In this document: in pieces, positions 4,487 through 61,876 of the stretch | How positions within the stretch are numbered: the first letter of the stretch is position 1 | Layout of the letters: every line of letters starts with the position of its first letter | From: an uncultured Eubacteriales bacterium | GTDB lineage: Bacteria > Acidobacteriota > Aminicenantia > Aminicenantales > UBA4085 | Length of the DNA stretch: 64,000 nt | NCBI GenBank assembly: GCA_964537875.1 | Contig: CAZIDN010000007.1 | Span: forward strand, 6,720-70,719 | Direction: 5' to 3' | Program-made: the position numbers and the translations under genes | The notes under the pieces: generated by a model | The model's input: only the letters and a program-made list of their open reading frames with translations | What the model was told of the DNA's origin: nothing | Database searches by the model: none

Positions 4487-6352
4487 ATGACACCGAACAT
4501 GCTTCTATGGCCGATTCTCCTGCCGGCCCTCATTGCCATCATCTGCCTGATCATTCCCAAGCGCATCAAATATCTCAGAGAAGCCATAGCCCTGATAGCC
4601 TCCCTCGTCGTCCTCTACATGGGATTTAAGCTCTTCTCCGTCAAAAACCTGGAATTCCGCCTCCCCTGGATGGGACAGGGCATTAATTTCGAGCTTCGGC
4701 TGTACCATTTTTCGAGCTTCATCCTGCTCGGCCTGGCCGGATTTCTCTTCCTCATCACCCTATATTCCATCGTCAAGATGAAGGACCACCCACGCCGGAA
4801 TGAATATTATGCCTATGTCTTCCTGTCCGCCGCGCTGGCCAACGGGGCCGTCTTAGCCGACAACTTCGTCCCGCTGGTCTTCTTCTGGGAAGGCCTGCTT
4901 TTGACGCTCTACGGCCTGATCTCGCTCGGCCGGAAAGAATCCAACCGGACCGCGGTCAAGGCGTTCATCATCAGCGGGTTCTGCGATTTTTGCATGATCC
5001 TCGGGATCGGCATCCTCTGGACGATCACCGGCACGCTGACCATGTCCCAGATCTCGATCAAACCCGAAGGCCCGGCCGCGGCCGCGTTCATCCTGATGAT
5101 GATCGGCGCCATCGGAAAAGCGGGGGCCATGCCGTTCCACACCTGGATCCCCGATGCCGCCATCGATGCTCCCGTGACCTTCATGGCCTTCATGCCGGCC
5201 TCCTTTGAAAAGCTGCTGGGCATCTACCTTCTGGCCCGGATCACGCTCGACCTTTTCAAATTGGAAAAGGGCAGCGCTCTGTCCCTCACTCTGATGATCA
5301 TCGGCGCCGCGACCATCGTCTTCGCGGTCATGATGGCCCTCATCCAGAAGGATTTCAAGCGGCTGCTCTCCTATCACGCCGTGAGCCAGGTCGGATACAT
5401 GATCCTGGGCATCGGAACGGCCATTCCCATCGGCATTGCCGGCGGGATCTTCCACATGATTAACCACGCCATGTATAAATGCGGGCTCTTCTTGAGCGCA
5501 GGCTCGGTCGAGCACCGGACCGGAACAACGGAGCTGAAAAAACTGGGCGGCCTGAGCAGAGAGATGCCCTGGACGGCCTTCGGTTTTTCAGTTTGCGCTC
5601 TGGCCATCTCGGGAGTCTGGCCCCTCAACGGCTTTGTCTCCAAGGAAATGGTGTTCCACGGCGCCCTGGAAAGCGGCTATACCATCTTCGCCATCGCCGC
5701 TTGGGTCGGCGCGATCTTCACTTTCGCCTCGTTCCTCAAGGCCGGCCATTCCGTGTTCTTCGGGCCAAGAACGAAGGACGTTCCCGCCGTCAAAGAGAGC
5801 CAAGGCGCCATCGTCGTCCCGATCCTGATCCTGGCGATCCTCTGCATCACCTTCGGCGTGTTCAACAAGCTGCCCTTGACCAACTTCATCCAGCCCATTC
5901 TTGAAGGCCACTTCGAGGCCGGCGAAAGCATCGACTTCACGGCCCATGCCCTGAGCATCTTCAACCCCGTGGCCGGCATCTCGATCCTCTGCCTGCTGAT
6001 CGCCCTGGCCATCCATTTCTACGGCTGGAAACGCGGCGGCAAGAAAGCCTACATGGCCTCCGAGCCCGTTCACAAGTTCCCCGGGATCAAACAGGTTTAT
6101 GACCTGGCCGAAGCCCGCGTCTTCGACCTCTACGAACAGGGCATCATCTTCCTGAGAGGGCTGTCGGTCGTCCTGTTCAAGGGAATCGACCGGCCCATCG
6201 ATTTCTTCTACGAGAAAATCGTCACAGCCGTGGGCAGGGCCTTCACCGGCGTTTTGAGTAAAGCCCATACCGGCCATTACGCCAATTACCTGGCCTGGTG
6301 CCTGGCCGGGCTGCTCGTCATTGCCACCCTGATCAATTTGCTGATAAAATAG
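4487..6352 (+). CDS. Group 4 [NiFe]-hydrogenase membrane subunit, NuoL-type antiporter-like (long form, ~620 aa), copy 2
   Basis: Motifs MPFHTWIPDA and SYHAVSQVGYMILG are present. The ATG at 4487 follows the stop of the previous gene by 1 nt. The tracked start at 4382 overlaps the upstream gene and is unlikely. Confidence 0.8.
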   Translation: MTPNMLLWPILLPALIAIICLIIPKRIKYLREAIALIASLVVLYMGFKLFSVKNLEFRLPWMGQGINFELRLYHFSSFILLGLAGFLFLITLYSIVKMKDHPRRNEYYAYVFLSAALANGAVLADNFVPLVFFWEGLLLTLYGLISLGRKESNRTAVKAFIISGFCDFCMILGIGILWTITGTLTMSQISIKPEGPAAAAFILMMIGAIGKAGAMPFHTWIPDAAIDAPVTFMAFMPASFEKLLGIYLLARITLDLFKLEKGSALSLTLMIIGAATIVFAVMMALIQKDFKRLLSYHAVSQVGYMILGIGTAIPIGIAGGIFHMINHAMYKCGLFLSAGSVEHRTGTTELKKLGGLSREMPWTAFGFSVCALAISGVWPLNGFVSKEMVFHGALESGYTIFAIAAWVGAIFTFASFLKAGHSVFFGPRTKDVPAVKESQGAIVVPILILAILCITFGVFNKLPLTNFIQPILEGHFEAGESIDFTAHALSIFNPVAGISILCLLIALAIHFYGWKRGGKKAYMASEPVHKFPGIKQVYDLAEARVFDLYEQGIIFLRGLSVVLFKGIDRPIDFFYEKIVTAVGRAFTGVLSKAHTGHYANYLAWCLAGLLVIATLINLLIK

Positions 6353-9896: not shown

Positions 9897-11095
9897 AGTT
9901 CACTATTCCCATCGGCCCCCAGCACCCCGCTCTAAAAGAGCCGATCAGCCTGCGGATGACCGTCGAAGGGGAAGTCATCCAGGACGCCGACATCCGCCTC
10001 GGCTATAACCACCGCGGCTTGGAGAAGCTGGCCGAAGAAAGGACATGGATTCAGAATATCTACCTGACCGAGCGCATTTGCGGCATCTGTTCCCACTCCC
10101 ACGCCACCTGCTATGTCCAGGGCGTGGAGAAGCTCATGGAGCTCAATCCTCCCAAGCGCGGCTTGTATATCCGGACGCTCGTCGCGGAGCTCGAGCGCAT
10201 TCACAGCCATCTGCTCTGGTTGGGCGTGGCGGGCCACGAGGCTGGCTTCGACTCGTTCTTCATGTACACCTGGCGGGATCGCGAAGTCGTGATGGACCTC
10301 CTGGAAATGATCTCGGGGAACCGCGTTCACTATGCCATTAATGCTATCGGCGGCGTGCGCCGGGACATCGACGAGATGCAAAGAAAGAAGATCCTGGACG
10401 GATTGGAGATCTTAAAGACGAGAACCGAATACTACTTCAAAATAGGCGTCAATGAGCCGACTTTCGTCGGCCGCCTGGCCGGAGTCGGGTATCTGTCCAA
10501 GGAAAAAGCCGTCGACCTGTGCGCCGTCGGCCCGATGGCCCGGGCTTCCGACCTGCCCCAGGACGTGCGCAAAGACGATCCCTATGCCGTTTACGATGAG
10601 GTCCCCTTTGATGTCTGCACCGCGGACACCTGCGATGTCCTGGGAAGGACTGTGGTCCGGATCAAGGAGCTGTTCGAATCCTACAAAATCTGCGAATTCC
10701 TGATGAAAAACCTCCCTCCCGGAGACATCGCCGTCAAGGCTCCGACGCGGGCCAAGCCGAACGAGGTCGTCAGCCGCTACGAAGCGCCCCGGGGAGAGAA
10801 TACTCATTACATCAAGTCCAACGGAACAAACAAGCCGGAGCGGCTGAAAGTCCGGGCGCCGACCCTGGCCAACTATCCGGCCACGGTGGAAATGCTCAAA
10901 AACGGGTTCATCGCCGATATTCCCCTGATTTTTGCCGCCATCGATCCCTGTATCTGCTGCGCCGAGCGGACCGTGAACATCGTCAACGCCCAAACCGGCG
11001 AAGAAAAAATCCTGCGCTTCGACGAGCTGAGGGCCCTGGCCGAAGAACGATTTAAAAAAATGCCTCCAAAAAGGAATGCGGTGTGGCCGTTCTGA
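9893..11095 (+). CDS. Group 4 [NiFe]-hydrogenase large (catalytic) subunit, NuoD-like
   Basis: The L1 motif RICGICSHSH and the L2 motif DPCICCAER are both present. These are the four Ni-Fe-ligating cysteines, which complex I NuoD has lost. A ~40-aa tail follows the L2 motif, the usual substrate of a HycI-type endopeptidase. The start is the ATG at 9893, overlapping the upstream stop. Confidence 0.85.
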   Translation: MKFTIPIGPQHPALKEPISLRMTVEGEVIQDADIRLGYNHRGLEKLAEERTWIQNIYLTERICGICSHSHATCYVQGVEKLMELNPPKRGLYIRTLVAELERIHSHLLWLGVAGHEAGFDSFFMYTWRDREVVMDLLEMISGNRVHYAINAIGGVRRDIDEMQRKKILDGLEILKTRTEYYFKIGVNEPTFVGRLAGVGYLSKEKAVDLCAVGPMARASDLPQDVRKDDPYAVYDEVPFDVCTADTCDVLGRTVVRIKELFESYKICEFLMKNLPPGDIAVKAPTRAKPNEVVSRYEAPRGENTHYIKSNGTNKPERLKVRAPTLANYPATVEMLKNGFIADIPLIFAAIDPCICCAERTVNIVNAQTGEEKILRFDELRALAEERFKKMPPKRNAVWPF

Positions 11096-12494: not shown

Positions 12495-12630
12495 CAATAC
12501 GGGGACAGGTACTTCCGACCTTTTTTTCCAACTCATTGTTTAACAACGAACGGGAATTCATATCAGGACTCTGAGGTTTTTTGAAATAGTTTATTTATCT
12601 TTGGAAGGAAGGATTTCCATATATGTAATT

Positions 12631-12755
12631 TGGATGAGGTGCCGGAATCGCCCCCAGTCCCCTGGGGAACCAGTCCCGTCGGTTCCCCCCGTCGAATAAC
12701 GACGGGGCCCCCCTCCGCTATGGGGACTTTAGGGGCGATTCCGGCACCTCATCCA
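12631..12755. repeat. Family-B structured repeat, copy B1 (core in reverse orientation relative to B2-B4). The outer 23-bp stem is TGGATGAGGTGCCGGAATCGCCC / GGGCGATTCCGGCACCTCATCCA.
   Basis: The core (reverse complement) is CCCCATAGCGGAGGGGGGCCCCGTCG-ttatt-CGACGGGGGGAACCGACGGGACTGGTTCCCCAGGGG. It lies between the last hydrogenase structural gene and the maturation-protease gene. Confidence 0.85.
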
Positions 12756-12859
12756 AACCAAATAAACGGATATGCTTACTTTTTGGGATGCGTCCTGTTT
12801 TTTTACAACAAGAACGCTTAAAATATAGAAGTGAGTTTAGGCTCACGGTATTCGGTTTT

Positions 12860-13390
12860 ATGAAAAAAGATATGTCCTCTCCTCCTGCCGCCTGGAAAGG
12901 CCGGCTCAAGAAGGAAATCCTTTCCGCCCGAAGGATCGTCATCCTGGCCGCGGGAAATCTCACCAAAGGAGATGATGCCGCGGGCATTCAATGCGCCCAA
13001 AAGCTAAAAAAATTGATGGGCGGGAAAGCCCGCTCATGCTTGAAGATTTTGCTCGGCCATGAAACCCCGGAGAATGCCACAGGCGAGATTCGGAAGTTCC
13101 GGCCTGACCTTGTCCTGATCCTCGATGCCGCCCAGGGGGGACATAATCCCGGAACTGTTTTTATCGTTGAGAAAAACCAGATCGAAGATGAAAGCGTCTC
13201 AACACACACAATTTCGTTGGCGTTGCTTGTCGTTTATCTGGAAGAAACAATCGGCTGCAAAGTGATGGTTCTGGGGATTCAGCCCCTCAGCCTAGGCTTA
13301 GGCGAAAAAGTATCGGCCCGGATAATAAAATCTGCCGGGAGCCTCGCTGCTTTTCTTGCCCACGTTTTCACGGATACGAGCCTTAATTAG
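12860..13390 (+). CDS. Hydrogenase maturation endopeptidase (HycI/HyaD family)
   Basis: The motifs ILAAGNLTKGDDAAG, LVLILDAAQGGHNPG and TVFIVE match the metal-binding Asp/His pattern of hydrogenase C-terminal proteases. The ATG at 12860 (MKKDMS) is chosen because the tracked start at 12788 runs into the repeat. Confidence 0.7.
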   Translation: MKKDMSSPPAAWKGRLKKEILSARRIVILAAGNLTKGDDAAGIQCAQKLKKLMGGKARSCLKILLGHETPENATGEIRKFRPDLVLILDAAQGGHNPGTVFIVEKNQIEDESVSTHTISLALLVVYLEETIGCKVMVLGIQPLSLGLGEKVSARIIKSAGSLAAFLAHVFTDTSLN

Positions 13391-13528
13391 AACATTCCCG
13401 CCATATGTACCGCGCAAACCTTCGGTTTTCAATGGTCTTAGACTATGAATTCGCCCGTAGCAGGATCAACCCCGCTCATATGTTCCGGATCGGCCCGACG
13501 ATGACGCCGGCTGCCGCAGAGCATTGAC

Positions 13529-13613
13529 GGGGTCAAAGCTACTTTTTACGCATTATTCTCTCGGGGGGAAAGTGCGTAAAAAGTAGCTTTGACCCCGGAC
13601 TATTGACCCCGGA
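13529..13613. repeat. Family-A palindromic element, copy A3 (GGGGTCAAAGCTACTTTTTACGC / loop / GCGTAAAAAGTAGCTTTGACCCCGGA), plus a tandem partial repeat CTATTGACCCCGGATTTT
   Basis: Same architecture as A1/A2. The inner stem differs at 3 positions and each change is compensated. Confidence 0.85.
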
Positions 13614-13626
13614 TTTTCCCGGATTT

Positions 13627-13911
13627 TTAAGCCCTGATCTCAGCCCTGGCGTAGGCGTATTCCTTGAAAATCTTATCCCGAGACTCATGCTTTGAGCATT
13701 TCATCAAAAGAAGAAAGAGGTCTTCTTTGAGCCTTCTCCAAGCTTCTTCCTTGGTTTTTCCAACAGACCAAAAATCATAGATCGGGCAGTAGCAGAAATA
13801 GTATTTGGTCTGGTTTTTGATCTGTATGGGGGTTGATGGCGTCGCTGTTGCTGAAGTCTTCATAGTCCACCTCATCCAATCATCTTTGGTCGTCTGTTCC
13901 ATATCTCGCAA
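13627..13911 (-). CDS. UPF0150/HicB-like small protein (possible orphan antitoxin-like RNase-H-fold protein). Start codon uncertain; internal ATGs at 13902 and 13863 are alternatives.
   Basis: The segment IQIKNQTKYYFCYCPIYDFWSVGKTKEEAWRRLKEDL fits the UPF0150/HicB N-domain pattern (Y.a.vPe..G....G.T.EEA..n..eal). It lies in a 42% GC islet. No HicA-like partner ORF of at least 60 aa is present. Confidence 0.35.
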   Translation of the reverse strand: MRDMEQTTKDDWMRWTMKTSATATPSTPIQIKNQTKYYFCYCPIYDFWSVGKTKEEAWRRLKEDLFLLLMKCSKHESRDKIFKEYAYARAEIRA

Positions 13912-14063
13912 CTTTTCTTCCTTCCAGGATCATTTTTTCTTTTCCATATATATATACGAAGGCAAGGCCTGTTTTGTTGCCTCGTCTTTGCTAAAAATGA
14001 AAAAAATATGGTGAAGAGGGATGGAAGAGGGAAAGCCCCGTTTGCCGGTAAAATCCCTAGACG

Positions 14064-14132
14064 GGGTCAAACCTACTCGTTACGCATAATTCTCTTGGGG
14101 AGCGTGCGTAACGAGTAGGTTTGACCCCGGAT
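14064..14132. repeat. Family-A palindromic element, copy A2 (nearly identical to A1)
   Basis: GGGGTCAAACCTACTCGTTACGC-ATAATTCTCTTGGGGAGCGT-GCGTAACGAGTAGGTTTGACCCCGGA. Confidence 0.85.
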
Positions 14133-14217
14133 TTCTTATCAAGGAAAAGATATGGAAGGCCTAAGAATCCCCCTTCCCCCCAAACAAAGGCACAGGAGGA
14201 AAGGGGGATTCAACTCT

Positions 14218-15378
14218 CTAGATGATCTCGAGATAGTCCTTGCCGGGCAGCTTCGGGAAGGGCGCGTGCGGTTCGACCTGGTACCAATAGGCAACCGAGG
14301 CGATATCATCCTGGAGGGGCAGGTATCGCCCGCCGGACCTCCAGCCGAGCGCCTGGATCGTCACCTTGAGGTCTTTCTCGAAACGAACCGGGTCCATGAT
14401 GTGCCACCGATAGAGGCCGAAGCGCTGCTCAACATTGTAATGGCCGTCGCCCCGGATGACTTGGGCCAAGCCTGCGTACGGCGTCGTAAACTCGGTGTAG
14501 CGGATAACCCCATCCGGGCCGGGGGCATCGAAATCGTAAGATCCGCAGAAGTAATCCTCGGTCCCGGTTCCGGCGATCGTCGGAAAATCCGTGTCGCCGT
14601 CGAGGAAGAACTTGATTTCTCCCTCGCCCCACCAGCCGTTGTTGTTGACGCCCCAGGCCATATAGGTGCCGACATAGTGGCCCCAGCCTTTGACGCCGTC
14701 AAGGAGCGTATAGACGTTCTTATACGGCACCGGATTGACGCGCCGGAACTGGGCATGGAAGTAGCCGGCATCCTCGGGCACCTCAGTCAGGGTGTAATTG
14801 ATCTGGTAGTAAATCGTGAAATTTTCCTCGGCCATGTTTTCCAGGGTAACCTTGAAGGACTTGCGGAAAGGCATCTGCCAGTAAGAGTTGAAAGCCCGGC
14901 CCGGGTTGACGCAGACCGGAAGGGACGAGATTTGGGCGTACTTTCCCCAGCCGCAGGCGAAGAAATCGCCGATCGGAGCTTCGATCGAGGGCTCCTTTTC
15001 GCCGTCCCAATAGAATCGCAGGATGGCAAAGCGCCAGGTGCCGGACGGAGTCATCCAGATCTGTTGGATGGCGCCCATGCCCTGAACGTCGGCCAGGACG
15101 AACGTCTCTTTCGGCTTGATCACGACATAGGGTGACACCTTCCAGCCCTGGCCCAGGTCGCGTGCGGACTTCAGGGCCGGCCCGTCCGTCGACATGCCGG
15201 CCTTGCCTTTTTCGCCCGTGAAATTCTCCGGGCTGATCGACCGCGTCTTAGCATGAGACAGCCGGGAGAGGTTCCCCAGGTCAAGATAGAGTCCATCAAA
15301 CGGTTTTTTTTCCTGGGCGGCGTAAAGAACGATCCCCGCCAGCAGAACGACTGCCAATTTAACAACAGCTTTCTTCAT
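14218..15378 (-). CDS. DUF2961 / GH172-family glycoside hydrolase, secreted
   Basis: A signal peptide (MKKAVVKLAVVLLAGIVLYA) follows a perfect AGGAGG Shine-Dalgarno. The WGEGEIKFFLDGD and GTGTEDYF motifs are characteristic of DUF2961. Confidence 0.6.
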   Translation of the reverse strand: MKKAVVKLAVVLLAGIVLYAAQEKKPFDGLYLDLGNLSRLSHAKTRSISPENFTGEKGKAGMSTDGPALKSARDLGQGWKVSPYVVIKPKETFVLADVQGMGAIQQIWMTPSGTWRFAILRFYWDGEKEPSIEAPIGDFFACGWGKYAQISSLPVCVNPGRAFNSYWQMPFRKSFKVTLENMAEENFTIYYQINYTLTEVPEDAGYFHAQFRRVNPVPYKNVYTLLDGVKGWGHYVGTYMAWGVNNNGWWGEGEIKFFLDGDTDFPTIAGTGTEDYFCGSYDFDAPGPDGVIRYTEFTTPYAGLAQVIRGDGHYNVEQRFGLYRWHIMDPVRFEKDLKVTIQALGWRSGGRYLPLQDDIASVAYWYQVEPHAPFPKLPGKDYLEII

Positions 15379-16592: not shown

Positions 16593-16608
16593 TTGGCGGG
16601 ATCTTGGC

Positions 16609-16687
16609 GGGGTCAAGCCTCAACATTCAACATAATCTCTTTGGACTCACTCTTTATTCTTCTTGTTGAATGTTGAGGTTTGACCCC
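16609..16687. repeat. Family-A element, divergent copy A4. Conserved ends GGGGTCAA/TTGACCCC; unrelated 16-bp inner stem GCCTCAACATTCAACA/TGTTGAATGTTGAGGT; 31-nt loop containing TAATCTCTTTGG.
   Basis: Seen directly in the sequence. It lies immediately 3' of the GH130 gene and 5' of the Fur-family promoter. Confidence 0.7.
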
Positions 16688-16696
16688 GTTTTTCTC

Positions 16697-20035: not shown

Positions 20036-20149
20036 ATCTCTGTCCCTCGGTTCAAATCGCCTTCACTGGCTTGGGCTTTTTGATGCTTTTTATATATACA
20101 CTAAAAAAAGAGCCGATTCCAGCGGACGCAGAAAGCAGGTCAATTTGTG

Positions 20150-20286
20150 TGATTTCAAAGAAGCGTGGCAGTTGCCCCTGAGGCCCCCATAGCGGAGGGG
20201 GGCCCCGTCGGTTTGTCGACGGGGGGAACCGACGGGACTGGTTCCCCAGGGGGCAAGGGGGCAACTGCCACGCTTCTTTGAAATCA
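20150..20286. repeat. Family-B structured repeat, copy B2. A 30-bp perfect outer stem TGATTTCAAAGAAGCGTGGCAGTTGCCCCT / AGGGGGCAACTGCCACGCTTCTTTGAAATCA encloses the conserved core.
   Basis: It sits in the divergent intergenic region between the TIM-barrel gene and the DUF1080 gene. Confidence 0.85.
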
Positions 20287-20366
20287 TATATTTGGGGAGG
20301 CTTTCGGGAACCATTGCCGACAGTTGAAATTTTCGGCCGGGTTTGTCATGATGACCGTGAAGGAGA

Positions 20367-27835: not shown

Positions 27836-27973
27836 GTGATTTTCTATCGGTACCGCAATCGCCCCCAAGGCCCCATAGCGGAGGGGGGCCCCCGTCGGCT
27901 TTTCGACGGGGGGAACCGACGGGACTGGTTCCCCAGGGGCCGGGGGGCGATTGCGGTACCGATAGAAAATCAC
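27836..27973. repeat. Family-B structured repeat, copy B3. A 31-bp perfect outer stem GTGATTTTCTATCGGTACCGCAATCGCCCCC / GGGGGCGATTGCGGTACCGATAGAAAATCAC encloses the conserved core.
   Basis: It sits in the divergent intergenic region between the tricorn-like and M48 genes. Confidence 0.85.
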
Positions 27974-34245: not shown

Positions 34246-34373
34246 GGGGGCGGCGCTTAGGCCGTCCTAAAGCCCCCGTAGCGGAGGGGGGACCCGTCGG
34301 CTTTTCCGACGGGGGGAACCGACGGGACTGGTTCCCCGGGGCCCGGGGGCTATGGGCGGCCTAAGCGCCGCCC
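34246..34373. repeat. Family-B structured repeat, copy B4. The imperfect 19-bp outer stem GGGGGCGGCGCTTAGGCCG / CGGCCTAAGCGCCGCCCAT encloses the core, which carries one variant (GTAGCGG instead of ATAGCGG).
   Basis: It lies between the GH38 gene start and the 3' end of the beta-barrel gene. Confidence 0.8.
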
Positions 34374-42800: not shown

Positions 42801-44898
42801 TGCCATCGGCGTTGTGTTCAAAAAGCGCGTGGTATCTTGCTTCAGAATCCCGCAGCGTCTCCTCCGCCCGCTTGTGCTCGGTGAAGTCTTCCCCTGAGCA
42901 AAGGATGCCCATGAAGTTCCCGGCTTCATCTTTCAAAGGAATATTGTGCCAGGCGATGATTCTCTCCTCCCCTCGTTGAGTGAGAACCGGATTTTCATAG
43001 TATTCAAGAGGCTCGACTTCTCCGGCCGCCAACCTTTTGAAAACATGTTGTACCTCATTCTTGATTCGTGCCGGTAAGAAGGTCTCGCACCAGTTCTTTC
43101 CGATGATCTCATGCTCCGGATAGCCGAGAATTTCGCATCCTTTTTTATTGATTAGGGTAACCGTGGCCGATGAATCCAAAATGACGATCATCACGCCTGC
43201 GATATCCAGATATCTTTGGGCCTTATCCTTCTCCTTACCCAGCTCTTTTCTCTTCTGCTTCTCGTCGATGATGTGGGCAATATAGCTGGCGATAGCCTGA
43301 AGGACTGAGACATCGTCTTCAGAGAAGGCGTTGACCTGCGTCGCCTGAAGGTCGAGAACGCCGATGAGCTGATCTTGGACAACCAGGGGAATGATCAACT
43401 CCGCTTTTGTCTCCGTGAGGTGAAAAGCGATATAGTCCGGCTCTTTGAAAACGTCGTTGGCGACGATCGTTTGTTTCAAGTGCCCCGCCTTGCCGATCAG
43501 CCCTTGTCCCAGCTTCTGTCTATGGCCCCTGGGGATAAGAAGGCCCGATTTGTTCCAGCCGGTCAGATATTCGATTTCCTCCGTTTCCGGATCATAAAGG
43601 TTCACGGAAATCTTGTAATATCCGAAGGACTTCCCGATGCTTTCGGCTGCCTGGACGATCACCGTTTCAATATCGGTATTCACCGGAATTTCGCTTTGAA
43701 TATGATGAATCAGCTCGAGCTGGATGTTGCGCTTTTGAAGGGCCTCTTCGGCCTGTCTCCGGTCGGTCATATCCCACATGTAGGAGCGAGTCCCGACAAG
43801 CCGTCCGTCTTCTCTCAAATCAACGACATCCACCTCAAGATATCGGACGGATCCATCTTTCTTGATGCCTCTGAATTCATATTTCGATGGGACATTTTTA
43901 TTTCGAAGACGTTCTTCATGATAGGTCACGACCTTTTCTCTGTCCTCAGGATGGACGAGTGATTGGACAGGCTGTTTTAGCATCTCCTCCATAGAATATC
44001 CAAAAATTTCCGCGTACCTTTCATTGAAATATTTGAGATTCCCTTGGCTGTCATCGCTTGATATAGCGATCCGGGATTTTTCGACTAAATCCCTAAAATG
44101 TTCTTCTGATTTTTTTAAGGCCTCCTCCGCCCGCCTGCGCTCGGTAATGTCTCTTGTAACTGCGACAAAGCCTTTCAGCTCTCCTTCGATACCACAAACC
44201 AGGGCGGAACTGAGTTCACCGATAAATCGGGTTCCGTCTTTCTTAAGCAGGGTATATTGTGCGTCTTTTAGAATGCCGTCTTTCATAGTTATCTGAAGAT
44301 TTTTCTTCGCCCGTTCGCGATCCTCCGGAGAAATGAGCTCAAGAGCGTTTTGCCCGATGAGCTCTTGGGGACTTTTAAAACCGTGGAGCTCGAGAGTTCG
44401 GGGGGAAACGTAGGTAATCCTGCCCTCCATATCCGTTGCCGTGACCGCTTCCGGAGAGGTTTCGATCATCATTCGAAACCATTGTTCGGACTTGAGAATA
44501 TGTCGTTCTGTTTTTTTGCGTTCAATGGCGTAGCTGATCGACGTCGCCAGCCGGCTGGTGTTGAGTTGCTCTTTGACAAGATAATCCTGTGCCCCTCTTT
44601 TTATGGCATCGAGAGCAACCGTTTCATCGGCGAGACCAGTCAGCACGATAATCGGAACCTCTTGTTTCTGAGCATTGACCTTGATGAACGTCTCAAGTCC
44701 CCGGCTGTCGGGCAACCCGAGATCCAAGAGGATGACGTTATGCAAGGTCTCTTCGATTTTCTCCAAGCCCTCCTTGAGGCAGGAGGCAGTTTCAAGATCA
44801 AACAGGCTGATGTCCACTTCCTTAAACATTTCGCGAATGAGGAGGATATCCCCCGGGTTATCCTCGATCATCAGCACCTTGATCTGTTTGTCGGTCAT
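39859..44898 (-). CDS. Multi-sensor hybrid histidine kinase (N-terminal receiver, about 7 PAS/PAC, GAF, HisKA-HATPase, two C-terminal receivers)
   Basis: Receiver motifs occur at the N-terminus and twice at the C-terminus (ILIADDEDTNL...; ...DMRMPVMDG). Repeated PAS signatures are present (RDITERKRAEE x6-7). The H-box SHEIRTPLNAI and the N/G boxes are present. It overlaps the downstream RR gene by 4 nt. Confidence 0.85.
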   Translation of the reverse strand: MTDKQIKVLMIEDNPGDILLIREMFKEVDISLFDLETASCLKEGLEKIEETLHNVILLDLGLPDSRGLETFIKVNAQKQEVPIIVLTGLADETVALDAIKRGAQDYLVKEQLNTSRLATSISYAIERKKTERHILKSEQWFRMMIETSPEAVTATDMEGRITYVSPRTLELHGFKSPQELIGQNALELISPEDRERAKKNLQITMKDGILKDAQYTLLKKDGTRFIGELSSALVCGIEGELKGFVAVTRDITERRRAEEALKKSEEHFRDLVEKSRIAISSDDSQGNLKYFNERYAEIFGYSMEEMLKQPVQSLVHPEDREKVVTYHEERLRNKNVPSKYEFRGIKKDGSVRYLEVDVVDLREDGRLVGTRSYMWDMTDRRQAEEALQKRNIQLELIHHIQSEIPVNTDIETVIVQAAESIGKSFGYYKISVNLYDPETEEIEYLTGWNKSGLLIPRGHRQKLGQGLIGKAGHLKQTIVANDVFKEPDYIAFHLTETKAELIIPLVVQDQLIGVLDLQATQVNAFSEDDVSVLQAIASYIAHIIDEKQKRKELGKEKDKAQRYLDIAGVMIVILDSSATVTLINKKGCEILGYPEHEIIGKNWCETFLPARIKNEVQHVFKRLAAGEVEPLEYYENPVLTQRGEERIIAWHNIPLKDEAGNFMGILCSGEDFTEHKRAEETLRDSEARYHALFEHNADGILIADNETKGFQYANPAMCRMLGYTEDELRILGVSNIHPKDALSHVAAEFEAQIRGEKTLATDLPCLRKDGTIFYADINATTVAIAGRPYLVGFFRDTTERKRAEEDLKRSEERFRLVFESAPDAYYLNDLKGHFIDGNKAAEKLTGYKREELVGMSFLKLNLLSAELIPKAAYLLVKNLRGKPTGPDEFILKRKDGSKVAVEISTHPVRLEGKAVVLGIARDITERKKGEQALKENEEKYRTLTENINVGVFRNTAGPKNRFMEANPALVRMFGYKNRKAFLALNLSDLYQNVEDRERLIEKLLTKGFIRNEEVHVEKKDGKPFIYSLSAVAVKDEHGSIQYFDGTIEDITERKRAEEALQESEEKYRTLVENAAEAILIAQDGMLKFVNRMASEISGYSEQELRSSPFLEFVHPDDRQMVGEHYLRRLKGDVSLPRYAFRLINKDGSIKWVEIDAVLVAWEDKPATLNFLSDITERKRGEEELSKHREHLEELVKERTKELEGAKQDADAANRAKSIFLANMSHEIRTPLNAILGFSQLMGQDDTLNPQQRKHLDTINRSGEHLLALINDVLEMSKIEAGRTTLNATTFDLRALLEDLEMMFRVRTDAKKLDFAVEGLSHIPDYVVGDEGKLRQVFINLLGNAVKFTEKGGIVLRVHMNQESSNRLRLQAEVEDTGVGIPETELNNLFKPFQQTQNSRRAGSGTGLGLAISKEFVRLMEGDITVDSKDGTGSLIKFDVHLGECEAGSDKKKPESARVKGLRPGQPTYRILIADDEDTNLTLISQMLGNIGFETRQVTNGQEAVEEFTAWQPHLILMDMRMPVMDGYDAIRLIRAGAGGRDVKIVSISASAFSQNRQEALRAGADDFIAKPFREAVLYETIGKLLGVAYVFSDEAGLAKLLPGAAVMSAMTAEILSVLPEESINKMRDAVTNADFDLMMELAGGVEDHNILVAQELRSLIERFEYSELLELLQTRRNAR

Positions 44899-45327
44899 TT
44901 TTTATCTTCTGTAGGGAGTTTCATCGTGGCCAGCCCGTTAAGGTTTCCAGCGCCTTCCGAATCTGAGCTTGTCTCATCATGTTGACGGATGTCTTCATCT
45001 TAATTTCTCTGTTTCAGGAAAAAATGATGAGCTGCTGTTTTCCTCCCCTCACGGCCCCAGGATTATGGCGTAATGCTCTCCGTGCCCGTCAGGCCTGTCT
45101 GAGATATACCACCTCGATTTCTGCTCGGCATGCTAAAATTGTCGGGGGAATCTTTCAGTTTAACAATCCCCTCTTTGAATGAAGTTTAAGATGATTTTTA
45201 TTCGGGTTTTATCACCTATAAGGGGGATGTCGGCTTAATTACAGACGTCTTGATCTGTAAACTTTCTTACAAGTTATTTATTTTAAAGGAGGTTAGAGGA
45301 TGAAAAGGATATTTTTCCTCGTCATTT

Positions 45328-45789
45328 TCACTTGCTTCCGTCCGGCGGCAGCTTGACCACAGTCAGCCAGAAGTCCTCGATGGATTTCACGACCTTGATG
45401 AATTGATTCAGGTCAATGGGCTTTGTGATAAAACAGTTCGCATTGAGGTTGTACGTCTTCAGGACGTCTTCCTCATCCTTAGAAACCGTCAAGATAACCA
45501 CTGGGATTCGCTTCAGGTCGGGGTCTCCTTTGATCTCTGCCAGAACCTCCCGGCCGTCTTTTCCGGGAAGGTTGAGGTCCAGCAGGATGAGGTCGGGCCG
45601 CTGCACTCGAGCATGCTTACCCTCTTTCCGGAGAAAATCCATCGCCTCCTGGCCGTTATCCACCAGATGCAGAGTGTTGCGGACTTTGGCGTCCTGGAAA
45701 ACTTCCCAGGCCAGCCGGGCATCCCCCGGGTTGTCCTCAACCAATAAGATTTCGATGGGATGGACCGCGATTTCGGAAACCATAATCAT
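45328..45789 (-). CDS. Single-domain response regulator (CheY-like)
   Basis: [10 protein letters not shown]...[14 protein letters not shown]...K receiver motifs are present. Confidence 0.75.
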
Positions 45790-58445: not shown

Positions 58446-60488
58446 TCACTTCTTAACCCTGCTCTTCTCGAACCAGGCCATGAGGTAGGCCTGCTGGAGA
58501 AGCCGGTGCGACGGCCGCCTCCAGCCGTGAAATTCCTCGGGCATCCGGACGAGGAGGGTGTCTTTCTTCAACATTTTGAGGGCGCGGTAGAACTCCTCGC
58601 TCTGGCTGATCGGCGTCCGCAGGTCGGCCTCCCCCGTCATGACCATGGTCGGCGTGGTCACGTTGGCCACATAGTTGAGCGGCGAGCGCGCCGCATATTC
58701 CAGCGGATCTTCCCAGGGATATTTTTTGAACTGCTTGTACCAACTCGGGCCGTCCGTGATGCCCACGAAGGAATGCCAGTTGATCACCGGCCGCATGGAA
58801 ACCGCGGCCCGGAAGCGGTTGGTGTGGCCGACGATCCAGGCCGTCAGCACGCCGCCGCCGCTCCCGCCGCAGACGAATAAATTATCCTTGTCAATAAAAC
58901 CCTTGGCCAGGGCCGCATCGACGCCGGCCATCAGATCATCGTAATCTTTGCCGGGATAGGAGTATTGAATGCCATTCACGAAATCCTGGCCGTAGCCCGT
59001 GCTTCCCCTGGGATTCATGAACAGCACCGCATACCCGTTCGCGGCGAAGTTCTGCCAATCCCAATTGAAGGCCACCGAATACATCGACCAGGGGCCGCCG
59101 TGGATATAGAGCAGCATGGGATATTTTTTGGCCGGGTCGAATTCGGCCGGCTTGATCAACCACCCCTGGAGGTCAAGGCCGTCCGGCGCCTTGAACCTTA
59201 GCTCCTCGACGTCGCCGAGCTTGACGTCCGTCAGGATATCGGTATTGACGTCCACGAGTTCTTTGACGGCATCGGGCTTCATCATCTGAAAAGCGACAAG
59301 ACAGCCCGGCCGGTTGGAGGTCGTGAGGATGGCCGCCGCCTGGCCGTTTCTGGCTGTGGAAACACCCGACAGGACATGGGCGCCTTTCGTGATTTTCTTG
59401 ACGGGGCTGGCCAGTCCGGCAAAATAAAGATTGGCCTCGCCGCTCGAATCCATCTGGTAATAGACGCCGGAATTGTCCGGGGCCCAGAAGACATTGGATG
59501 GCGAGCTCGGCAGATTCCCGGCCAGAAGCCGCTTGGCCCCGCCGCTTGAATCCATGAGATAGAGGCTCGAAAGATGGCTCGTGTAATTCTTCTCGTCATA
59601 GCCGGTGTAGGCGACCCATTTCCCGTCCGGGGAGAGGCGCGGGCTTCCATCCGGACCTTTGCGGTCGGTCAAGGCCTTGATCTCCAGAGTTTTGAGGTCG
59701 ACGGCATAGATCTCGGAATCGCCGAACTGGTATTCGGCATCCGGCTTCCGGATGGCGCTGAAATAAATGACCTTTCCGTCGGCCAACCATTGGGGATCAT
59801 TATGCGAATAGTCGCCTGATGTGACCTGCTTGGGCGTCCCTCCCAGCTCGGCATCAATGATAAAGACATGGGTATATCCCTTGGGAAGCCATCCCCGTCC
59901 ATCGGCGCGCCAGGCAAGCCGGTCTACGAGCACGGCCGGCGCTGCCCACTTCGCGCCCTCAGGCCGCTTGGGAAGCTTGACGTTGAGGATCGGCTTATCG
60001 TCCGGAACAAACGCGGTGAAGGCCAGCCTCTTGCCGTCGGGGGACCAGACAAGGCCGGCCGGGGCCCGTTCCAAGTGGGTGAGCTGGGCCACTTCGCCCG
60101 TGTCGAGCCACATGACATGGATCTGGGTCGTTTCGTCGCGTTCCGAAAGAAAGGCGATCTTCTTCCCGTCCGGCGACCAGACCGGCGAAGAATCGCGCCA
60201 GTTGCCGCGGGTCAGCTCCCGGACTCGCTTCCCTTCGATGTCGGCGATCCACAGATTGCTCCGCGATTGATCGTTGATCTTATCGATCCAGCCCCTGGTG
60301 AAGATGATGCTTTTGCCGTCGGGCGAAATCTGGGGGCTGCCGACCGATTCCATTTCAAAATAGGTCTCGGTCTCGAGCAGCTTATAGTTCTTCTGAGCGG
60401 CCGGGGACATTCCCAGCAGAAGAAAAACGGTCGCCAGGCACAGAATGAAAGACCGGAAAAAGTTTTTTTTCATATGATCCTCCGACAT
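58446..60488 (-). CDS. S9-family prolyl oligopeptidase/acylaminoacyl-peptidase (N-terminal beta-propeller plus alpha/beta hydrolase domain), secreted
   Basis: PD40 blades (SPDGKKIAFLS) are present. The nucleophile elbow is GGSGGG. The catalytic Asp/His regions lie in the C-terminal domain. Confidence 0.75.
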   Translation of the reverse strand: MSEDHMKKNFFRSFILCLATVFLLLGMSPAAQKNYKLLETETYFEMESVGSPQISPDGKSIIFTRGWIDKINDQSRSNLWIADIEGKRVRELTRGNWRDSSPVWSPDGKKIAFLSERDETTQIHVMWLDTGEVAQLTHLERAPAGLVWSPDGKRLAFTAFVPDDKPILNVKLPKRPEGAKWAAPAVLVDRLAWRADGRGWLPKGYTHVFIIDAELGGTPKQVTSGDYSHNDPQWLADGKVIYFSAIRKPDAEYQFGDSEIYAVDLKTLEIKALTDRKGPDGSPRLSPDGKWVAYTGYDEKNYTSHLSSLYLMDSSGGAKRLLAGNLPSSPSNVFWAPDNSGVYYQMDSSGEANLYFAGLASPVKKITKGAHVLSGVSTARNGQAAAILTTSNRPGCLVAFQMMKPDAVKELVDVNTDILTDVKLGDVEELRFKAPDGLDLQGWLIKPAEFDPAKKYPMLLYIHGGPWSMYSVAFNWDWQNFAANGYAVLFMNPRGSTGYGQDFVNGIQYSYPGKDYDDLMAGVDAALAKGFIDKDNLFVCGGSGGGVLTAWIVGHTNRFRAAVSMRPVINWHSFVGITDGPSWYKQFKKYPWEDPLEYAARSPLNYVANVTTPTMVMTGEADLRTPISQSEEFYRALKMLKKDTLLVRMPEEFHGWRRPSHRLLQQAYLMAWFEKSRVKK

Positions 60489-60616
60489 TTTAGATCCTCC
60501 TGAAAAAAATGGGGATAGATACTTGATTCGGGAAGCACGTACCTGTCCCTATTTTTTGTCCTCATTTTTGTGTGTCCCCATTTTTGTATACCCGTTTTTT
60601 CAGCTTCTTTTTAGCA

Positions 60617-61876
60617 TTATTTTGCGATAGTGTCTATGATTTCCTGGAGACCGATAAACAAGAAAAAGCCCAGGATCAAGATAAGAATGAGGTTCGTGAT
60701 CCATCTGTTTTTGAATTCCCTGCCGACCCAGGCCGGCCTGGTGTTCAGGAGAAGCAAGGTCAGTGCTAAAAGGGGCATGAAAAAAGCGCCCATCACCGCA
60801 TAGATAAGCTGGACCTGCTGCACTTTAAACCAGAGAAGATGGATGGGCACAAGGGCGAGGGCCAGCAGGTAACCCCGATATTCCTTGGTCTTGGTGATAT
60901 TTTTATCCCGGCTTTCGTCAAGGATGATGCCCCGCCGGAGATGGAGGAAGTCGGCAAACAAGTAAGGAACGCTCTGCCAGACTCCGAGAAGACTGGAAAA
61001 GACCGCGCCCCAGAATCCCCAGAGAAATATCCATTTCCCGGCCGGTCCCAGGACGCCGGCAAGCTGGTCGGCCAGGACGAGCGCCACAGTAGCGCCCTGG
61101 CCTTCGATCGTCACCCTGGACCCGATGATGACCATGGCGGCGCCAAAAAAAGCAGTCAATCCATAGCCTATCCCGAGGTCGAGACGGCAGTCCTTGACGC
61201 CTTGCCGGCCGGCCCTATTCTTCTCCCGAACCCAATAGCTGTAGGAAAGTAGCGTCACGGTCCCGCCGATCCCTCCCAGCACTCCCAGGAGCCAGGCGGT
61301 TCCTCCTCTGGGCAGGGCGGGATGGAAAATCGTTTTCCCTATCGCCGCCCAATCAGGCGATATCAAAAATACCGTCGATAAAACGGTCACGAACATGATC
61401 GCGGTCAGGAACGACATGGCAACCTGGAAGATCCTGAAGCCGCCGATCCAAACCAGCGTCAGTCCGACGACCGAATGGACGATCCCCCAAAAAATTTTCG
61501 AAGTTTGCGGATCGCCGATAGGAAGCAAGCCCACTCCGGCCACACCGCAGGCATTGATCAGGGCGCCGCCGACGCAATAAGACCAGAGAACAAAATAAAT
61601 AAAAAAGATCCATTGAACCCAGCGGCCGAGCCGCAGCACCCAGCCTTCGAGGACCGTCGTCCCGGTAGCCATCTGCCAGCGGGCGATGCCCTCTGCCAGG
61701 ACAAACTTGATGAAGGCGCCCCCCAGGGCCGCCCAGACCAAGACGACGCCGATCTGCGACCCGGCCAAGCTGGCCGTGATTAGATCGCCGGCCCCGACGC
61801 CCGTGGCCGCTACGACAAGACCCAGGATGATTTTTGAAAACCAGAAATCGCCTGAACGACTCGGTCTTTTGGACAT
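60617..61876 (-). CDS. NRAMP-family divalent metal (Mn2+/Fe2+) transporter-like membrane protein
   Basis: About 11 TM helices are predicted. An N-terminal GAGDLITASLAGSQ segment resembles the NRAMP DPGN region. The family call is by pattern only. Confidence 0.45.
   Translation of the reverse strand: MSKRPSRSGDFWFSKIILGLVVAATGVGAGDLITASLAGSQIGVVLVWAALGGAFIKFVLAEGIARWQMATGTTVLEGWVLRLGRWVQWIFFIYFVLWSYCVGGALINACGVAGVGLLPIGDPQTSKIFWGIVHSVVGLTLVWIGGFRIFQVAMSFLTAIMFVTVLSTVFLISPDWAAIGKTIFHPALPRGGTAWLLGVLGGIGGTVTLLSYSYWVREKNRAGRQGVKDCRLDLGIGYGLTAFFGAAMVIIGSRVTIEGQGATVALVLADQLAGVLGPAGKWIFLWGFWGAVFSSLLGVWQSVPYLFADFLHLRRGIILDESRDKNITKTKEYRGYLLALALVPIHLLWFKVQQVQLIYAVMGAFFMPLLALTLLLLNTRPAWVGREFKNRWITNLILILILGFFLFIGLQEIIDTIAK

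Follow-up and report, generated by a model that had tools for sequence, protein, structure and literature searches.

A solitary HicB-like small gene among REP-like hairpins in an Aminicenantes-type genome: probably inherited in place, not a mobile cassette

Within the window, the whole stretch of 64,000 nucleotides analysed here, an AT-rich islet with one small gene lies between two copies of a palindromic repeat. This raises the question whether the gene was brought there as a mobile cassette, as the sequence-only reading had proposed in the form of a composite mobile unit or an inserted passenger gene. According to our analysis, the islet is probably a vertically inherited small gene of an Aminicenantes-type genome that stands among REP-like hairpins, and not a mobile cassette. 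The locus is composed as follows.

12788..13390, plus strand: hycI, coding for a HycI-like hydrogenase maturation protease (Pfam PF01750)
13368..13527, plus strand: unique 160-bp filler from the hycI end to A3, with a 40-aa ORF remnant that stops 2 nt short of A3
13528..13597, no strand: hairpin A3 (family A), stem CGGGGTCAAAGCTACTTTTTACGCA, loop TTATTCTCTCGGGGGGAAAG
13598..13626, no strand: partial tandem copies of the element end, GGACTATTGACCCCGGATTTTCCCGGATTTTT
13627..13863, minus strand: small CDS, 78 aa (MKTSATATP...AEIRA), solitary HicB/UPF0150-like, domain-only
13864..14010, minus strand: conserved AT-rich promoter-like block (CGGCAACAAAA, CGTATATATAT) and 85-nt purine-rich leader
13867-13873, minus strand: Shine-Dalgarno sequence GAGGTGG ahead of the ATG at 13863
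14062..14129, no strand: hairpin A2 (family A), stem CGGGGTCAAACCTACTCGTTACGCA, loop TAATTCTCTTGGGGAGCG
14165..14211, minus strand: short GC-rich hairpin directly 3' of the GH172 stop, GAATCCCCCTTCC...GGAAAGGGGGATTC
14218..15378, minus strand: GH172 (DUF2961) gene, the small gene's invariant upstream neighbour on the same strand

The AT-rich islet between two repeats was confirmed, with 42.9% GC at 13614-14063 and A3 and A2 on its two sides. The background of about 60% GC assumed earlier was too high; the window mean is 55.1%, though the flanking GH172 and GH130 genes reach 56-59%. The islet is among the lowest 1% of 450-bp windows by GC, a rank that about five further patches share. Other 450-bp patches with less than 45% GC were located at 2251-2850, 43800-44300, 44850-45550 and 60250-60900. 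Pfam assigned the neighbours to PF01750 and DUF2961/GH172 in agreement with their first annotation, and GH130 is the next gene after GH172. A3 lies 30 nt beyond the small-gene stop codon, where this gene and hycI converge, and A2 is placed between the 3' end of GH172 and the putative promoter of the small gene. The two hairpins were correctly described as having the same orientation: both loops read ATTCTCT..GGGG on the plus strand, followed by GGA(T)TT.

A single minus-strand gene with the HicB-like motif had been reported, and 13627-13911 is indeed the only conserved ORF of the islet. In its longest form, it codes for 94 aa from a TTG at 13911, while the ATG at 13863 gives 78 aa. This ATG, preceded by GAGGTGG, is likely the real start. 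In-frame stops in L116, L117 and L002 imply that translation begins at MRW.MKTS or MKTS and not at the upstream TTG. Public data contained 11 clusters of the protein with 65-90% amino acid identity, each on one to three contigs. DNA context was obtained from seven lineages, namely the window, L003/L004/L005, L115, L002, L001, L116 and L117/L118. In all seven, the small gene directly follows GH172 and is encoded on the same strand, with GH130 on the far side of GH172 wherever the contig extends to it. A second ORF conserved between GH172 and the next gene was found in none of them.

The gene and its composition were apparently inherited together. Pairwise comparison of the seven lineages gave dN/dS values of 0.19-0.52, which indicates purifying selection, and dS values that reach about 1. 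The GC content of the CDS was 41-46% and that of the intergenic-plus-gene block 42-47% in every lineage. The GC3 of the small gene is 0.54 and equals that of hycI; the deficit lies mainly in GC1 and thus reflects amino acid composition. Low GC can be attributed to the AT-rich promoter-like block and leader and to the high content of Lys, Tyr, Phe and Ile in the protein, and is not a sign of recent foreign origin. Between the window and its closest relative L003, the islet is 92.7% identical and the flanking genes are 95.4-95.6% identical, which is the pattern predicted by vertical inheritance. A 45%-identical relative (P0015 in L199) was found in a different context with no hairpins, no partner and less depressed GC.

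These findings speak against the cassette. The islet occupies the same position in seven lineages, is single-copy and has neither a target-site duplication nor a transposase or integrase. No relative with an empty site was found, and neither was a second copy of the repeat-bracketed unit, although both had been suggested as places to look. It had also been argued that relatives which keep the islet and its GC but have no repeats would speak against a cassette. In the main this is what was observed: the islet and its low GC are kept, and the repeats, though mostly kept too, vary independently of the gene. A currently mobile cassette between direct repeats, or an integron-type cassette with attC-like ends, is therefore very improbable. 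The same orientation of the repeats in the window genome would suit it, and toxin-antitoxin-like genes are common as integron cargo. The attC R-box consensus is RYYYAAC/GTTRRRY, from which GTCAAAC/GTTTGAC differs by one mismatch. Like attC cassettes, the islet has a gene with a putative promoter and a toxin-antitoxin-like product between palindromes whose structure is conserved above their sequence. In contrast to attC sites, the stems are perfectly paired without extrahelical bases or an unpaired spacer, and the orientation is flipped in L115. The hairpins are also single and scattered among housekeeping genes and form no array, and the family-A pattern was found in no viral contigs.

The product of the small gene had been described as HicB/UPF0150-like. 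This holds as a remote relationship that emerges through profile intermediates, but not as a direct match. A direct Pfam and NCBIfam search with the protein gave no HicB-family match (PF15919, PF21748, PF05534 or an NCBIfam model); the only Pfam match with E<=1 was zf-like at 0.01, and a direct PDB sequence search returned nothing meaningful. A profile built from 12 close homologues reached 66 representatives at E<=1e-3 among 1.8 billion proteins searched. The consensus of these relatives is ..CP.LDV.SQG.T.EEA..NL.EAL.LFL.SC. When 70 aligned sequences were scanned with Pfam, UPF0150 was matched by 9, HicB_lk_antitox by 5 and PHD_like by 9, all weakly, with best E-values of about 4e-5 that stayed under the gathering scores. 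Four HicB/UPF0150 chains were among the eight weak, sub-threshold matches of a PDB profile search. In the AlphaFold2 model, the small protein has a predicted beta-beta-alpha core with a pLDDT of 94-97. C26 and C56 are a conserved pair of cysteines, and the motif appears in an F-W-S-V-G variant. What follows the core helix is just a short helix and a tail without a Pfam match, and the C-terminal RHH/HTH domain is absent.

The protein shares with the HicB/UPF0150 family (PF15919, PF21748; 6g1c, 2yzt, 2dsy) the motif C-P-x-hydrophobic-D-x-x-S/A-x-G-x-T-x-E-E-A ahead of a long helix and possibly the fold of its predicted core, and its distant profile relatives match these Pfam families. It differs in having no Pfam or NCBIfam match of its own, no adjacent HicA and no RHH/HTH tail, and in being fixed by a glycoside hydrolase gene and not in a mobile or defence context. 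The absence of a HicA partner, as first stated, was borne out by a scan of small ORFs near the islet and by all seven lineages, none of which has a partner gene for this clade. A crude, improvised phmmer search with HicA sequences gave nothing near the islet; one weak match inside a 656-aa ORF at 4687-4800 was judged spurious. In a distant relative (P0040 in L202), an overlapping downstream gene of 77 aa matches HicA_toxin with E=4e-4 over almost the full model, yet below the Pfam threshold. This arrangement suggests, as far as sequence comparison goes, that the wider family contains genuine two-gene modules. With no adjacent HicA and no DNA-binding tail, the product of the islet cannot be a self-contained toxin-antitoxin module. 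The partner and the tail would have been lost, or may never have been present. The protein can fairly be described as a diverged, solitary, domain-only HicB/UPF0150 relative, and to call it an antitoxin goes beyond the evidence.

About 150 nt upstream of the small gene are near-identical in the alignment of all seven lineages. This region contains CGGCAACAAAA, CGTATATATAT, the 85-nt purine-rich leader and GAGGTGG, and the promoter-like block with its leader (13864-14010, minus strand) is conserved more than the coding sequence. A sigma-70 consensus scan made no call in 13864-14010. RNA structure in the 5' leader was not supported, with -5 kcal/mol and one covarying pair. A 17-aa upstream uORF was considered as the reason for the conservation and rejected, as it varies across lineages. 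From its conservation, we infer that the block is a putative promoter of the small gene, which would then form an independent transcription unit.

The hairpins on both sides are strong. A2 and A3 have 25-nt arms with 100% complementarity. Folded as RNA, they reach -58 to -60 kcal/mol, and comparison with shuffles gives z-scores of -8 to -10. They differ from each other at three stem positions, each of them compensated (AAAGCTACTTTTT/AAAAAGTAGCTTT versus AAACCTACTCGTT/AACGAGTAGGTTT). A hairpin at the downstream site of A3 is present at the orthologous position in all seven lineages, decayed in L117 and with a long loop insertion in L116. The upstream site of A2 is occupied in six of seven; the hairpin is doubled in L003, has an inverted loop in L115 and is absent from L117/L118. 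The inverted loop means that direct orientation is not a conserved property, and the same orientation of A2 and A3 in the window genome is incidental. Family-A hairpins stand on both flanks in five of seven lineages. Such persistence suggests more than a random scatter of repeats and counts against our main explanation.

A role in transcription would fit the positions of the two hairpins. A2 would probably insulate or terminate the GH172 transcript ahead of the small-gene promoter, and A3 stands where the small gene and hycI converge. On the plus strand, A3 is followed by a 4-bp stem and ATTTTT. A consensus terminator scan called neither A2 nor A3, and a canonical U-tract is absent from both on the strands that transcribe GH172 and the small gene, so that they are at most candidate terminators. 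L117/L118 have a short CCCCCTTTCC-type hairpin at the upstream site instead, like the one at 14165-14211 in the window, which is probably the GH172 terminator.

Two further members of family A are found in the 64-kb window, A1 at 1566-1631 and A4 at 16608-16688. The inner stem of A4 is wholly different yet fully compensated, and GTTTTTCTCTT, a T-run, follows it. When one genome per species was scanned with the pattern GGGGTCAARSCT-N30-60-AGSTTTGACCCC, at least 109 loci were obtained, of which at least ten lie on one Aminicenantes chromosome. Among the matches listed, about 70% belong to Aminicenantes/Acidobacteriota MAGs and the others to Desulfobacterales (including two closed Desulfospira chromosomes), Actinomycetota, Nitrospirota, Verrucomicrobiota, Kiritimatiellae, Elusimicrobiota, Spirochaetes and further groups. 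Crude gene calls place 44 of the listed matches between convergent, 33 between tandem and 20 between divergent neighbours; the other 12 fall within ORFs. Stop codons are a median of about 10 nt away, and tandem copies lie near the upstream stop. Clustering of the ORFs around the 109 listed loci revealed no recurrent neighbour gene. Rfam, applied to the whole window with gathering thresholds and to 13350-14250 by E-value, returned only generic miRNA-type hairpin matches. In the literature searched, the motif occurred in full texts only as unrelated primers, and no paper ties Aminicenantes to REP elements.

The stem positions 13-24, which the search pattern leaves unconstrained, were paired in 81-98% of cases compared with 41-76% in shuffles. 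Up to four Watson-Crick pair types occurred per position, and G-T pairs made up only 1-5%. This bears on a further explanation in which the hairpins are RNA-level elements, either structured 3' UTRs or a family of sRNAs, on which expression of the small gene would depend. Very stable RNA folds, the location at 3' ends and compensated changes at orthologous sites in the window, L003, L002 and L001 agree with it. Against it stand the rarity of G-T(U) pairs, a frequency of mismatches that does not fall below that of wobble pairs, the variable orientation to transcription, the restriction of Rfam matches to generic hairpins and the 20 listed copies between divergent genes. Rare G-T pairs and free orientation indicate a DNA-level palindrome and not a selected RNA, and we regard an RNA-level element as highly unlikely. 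Bidirectional intrinsic terminators are likewise only partly similar. Strong hairpins about 10 nt from both stops, as in the 44 convergent pairs among the matches listed, and the T-run after A4 resemble them, but most copies have no U-tract, some lie between divergent genes, and the hairpins form a multi-copy family with a conserved base.

The closest known counterpart is the REP/BIME type of repeat. Like REPs, family A consists of short, stable extragenic palindromes with many dispersed copies at gene 3' ends and convergent junctions, in lineage-specific subfamilies with Watson-Crick-compensated stems. The stem of the Aminicenantes subfamily also contains the CTAC/GTAG tetranucleotide. Target-site duplications are missing in both; at 128 family-A hairpins, no flanking direct duplication was found beyond chance. 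Tn3-type terminal repeats were considered in view of the GGGGTC terminus. This idea was dropped, since the arms measure only about 25 bp and target-site duplications, of 5 bp or any other length, are lacking. End-to-end and nested partial copies are a further common trait. Full hairpins often have partial copies of the element's terminal 10-15 nt (TTGACCCCGGA...) beside them, in tandem or nested, as at 13598-13626 and 1632-1655 in the window, where the tail GGACTATTGACCCCGGATTTTCCCGGATTTTT follows A1 as well, at 10376-10388 and 13619-13645 in L001, at 476-499 in L013 and also in L003. Such copies suggest repeated insertion into, or slippage at, element ends. Family A differs from REPs in its greater length (about 55-85 nt with stems of about 25 bp) and in its 12-bp base GGGGTCAAA(C/G)CT, which is common to several phyla, whereas classical REPs are species-specific. 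It also differs in that no flanked RAYT gene was found at the loci listed. Family A is thus REP-like in every respect tested save a cognate transposase.

Other palindromes were observed alongside family A. Long intergenic palindromes of at least two more families are present in the window at 12605-12781, 20131-20305, 27836-27973 and 34248-34373, one family with GATTTCAAAGAAG.GTGG...GCCCC and another with GGGCGGCGCTTAGGCCGYCC. L002/L003 have both of them, and hairpin repeats crowd the genome. A DnaJ-domain gene of two Desulfospira species is bracketed, at orthologous sites, by a pair of hairpins from the superfamily of family A (L018 6659-7470, L081 4421-5312). The palindrome of these hairpins extends outward (GAGTAATGGGGTCAAACC...), and this is a second case of a gene between hairpins in conserved synteny.

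Local rearrangements were observed at family-A hairpins, the first of them at the islet itself. A 2.4-kb segment of L003 (2176-4586), with a Peptidase_M28 gene and a hairpin of the GGGCGGCGCTTAGGCC type, is missing from the window at 13367-13529. On the 95%-identical L003 contig, it separates the small gene from hycI; in L001 and L115, too, M28 comes next after the small gene. The breakpoints are the first base of A3 and the last ~20 nt of hycI, so that the C-terminus of hycI differs. The segment is replaced by 160 bp of unique DNA with the 40-aa ORF remnant, which marks a deletion/replacement junction, and tblastn detected no M28 remnant in the window. hycI adjoins the islet here only because the M28 segment is missing.

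The second case is an IS200-like Y1/HUH transposase of 147 aa which lies exactly between family-A arms on an Aminicenantes chromosome (OY969696.1, L104 5513-6199) and has its own end hairpins CCCCGYGGCAAGCCRCGGGG. It was considered as the mobiliser of family A (a REPtron) and rejected. None of 46 close relatives from metagenomes with sufficient flanks had family-A arms on both sides, and a single arm-like motif stood beside one. The transposase, the only Y1 enzyme found by such arms, is therefore probably an incidental insertion into a hairpin loop. In a Verrucomicrobiota MAG (L098 503-2368), two perfectly inverted family-A arms of 30 nt enclose 1.85 kb with an Rhs/YD-repeat fragment and a small RHH-like ORF. 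Neighbouring ORFs end with ...GVKP* inside the arms, since GGGGTCAAACCTTGA encodes G-V-K-P-stop. Taken with the loss of M28, both insertions make family-A hairpins appear linked to local rearrangements.

Such events lead to the explanation that an ancestor common to these lineages acquired the small gene as a hairpin-bounded insertion, the palindromes serving as hot spots of recombination or insertion, and that the gene was then fixed. The persistent low GC and the hairpins on both sides in most lineages are compatible with this ancient capture, as are the insertions that family-A hairpins do take up (the IS200-like element of L104 and the Rhs/RHH cargo of L098). The same is true of the missing M28 segment, which ends exactly at A3, and of the distant homologue P0015, which has another context without hairpins. 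The islet is, however, flanked by two complete hairpins and not by two halves of one, and L117/L118 have no upstream hairpin with gene and putative promoter intact. As GC3 is not unusual and an empty site was found in no relative, an ancient capture is considered unlikely. A wider proposal would make family A an undescribed cross-phylum palindromic DNA element with the invariant 12-bp base GGGGTCAAA(C/G)CT and lineage-specific stems that are only Watson-Crick-compensated. It would be spread or maintained by a putative ssDNA enzyme or a conserved host factor and would be a hot spot of insertion, deletion and capture, with the HicB-like gene as an ancient capture and the M28 loss as a recent deletion. 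We regard this whole as speculative and quite doubtful, and vertical inheritance of a small gene among REP-like hairpins is retained as the probable explanation.

For genomes crowded with intergenic palindromes, the locus teaches that repeats on both sides of an AT-rich gene are no evidence of mobility. The locus itself is ordinary, and the interest that remains lies in the hairpin family and its apparent role in local rearrangements. This REP-like family is outside Rfam and the literature searched, and its 12-bp base is common to Aminicenantes, Desulfobacterales, Actinomycetota, Nitrospirota and other MAGs. In these uncultured groups, it could be used to mark 3' ends, breaks in assemblies and hot spots of rearrangement. 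The small gene, in turn, belongs to a small clade of solitary, domain-only HicB-like proteins fixed by glycoside hydrolase genes, in which an antitoxin domain has possibly been co-opted away from toxin-antitoxin function.
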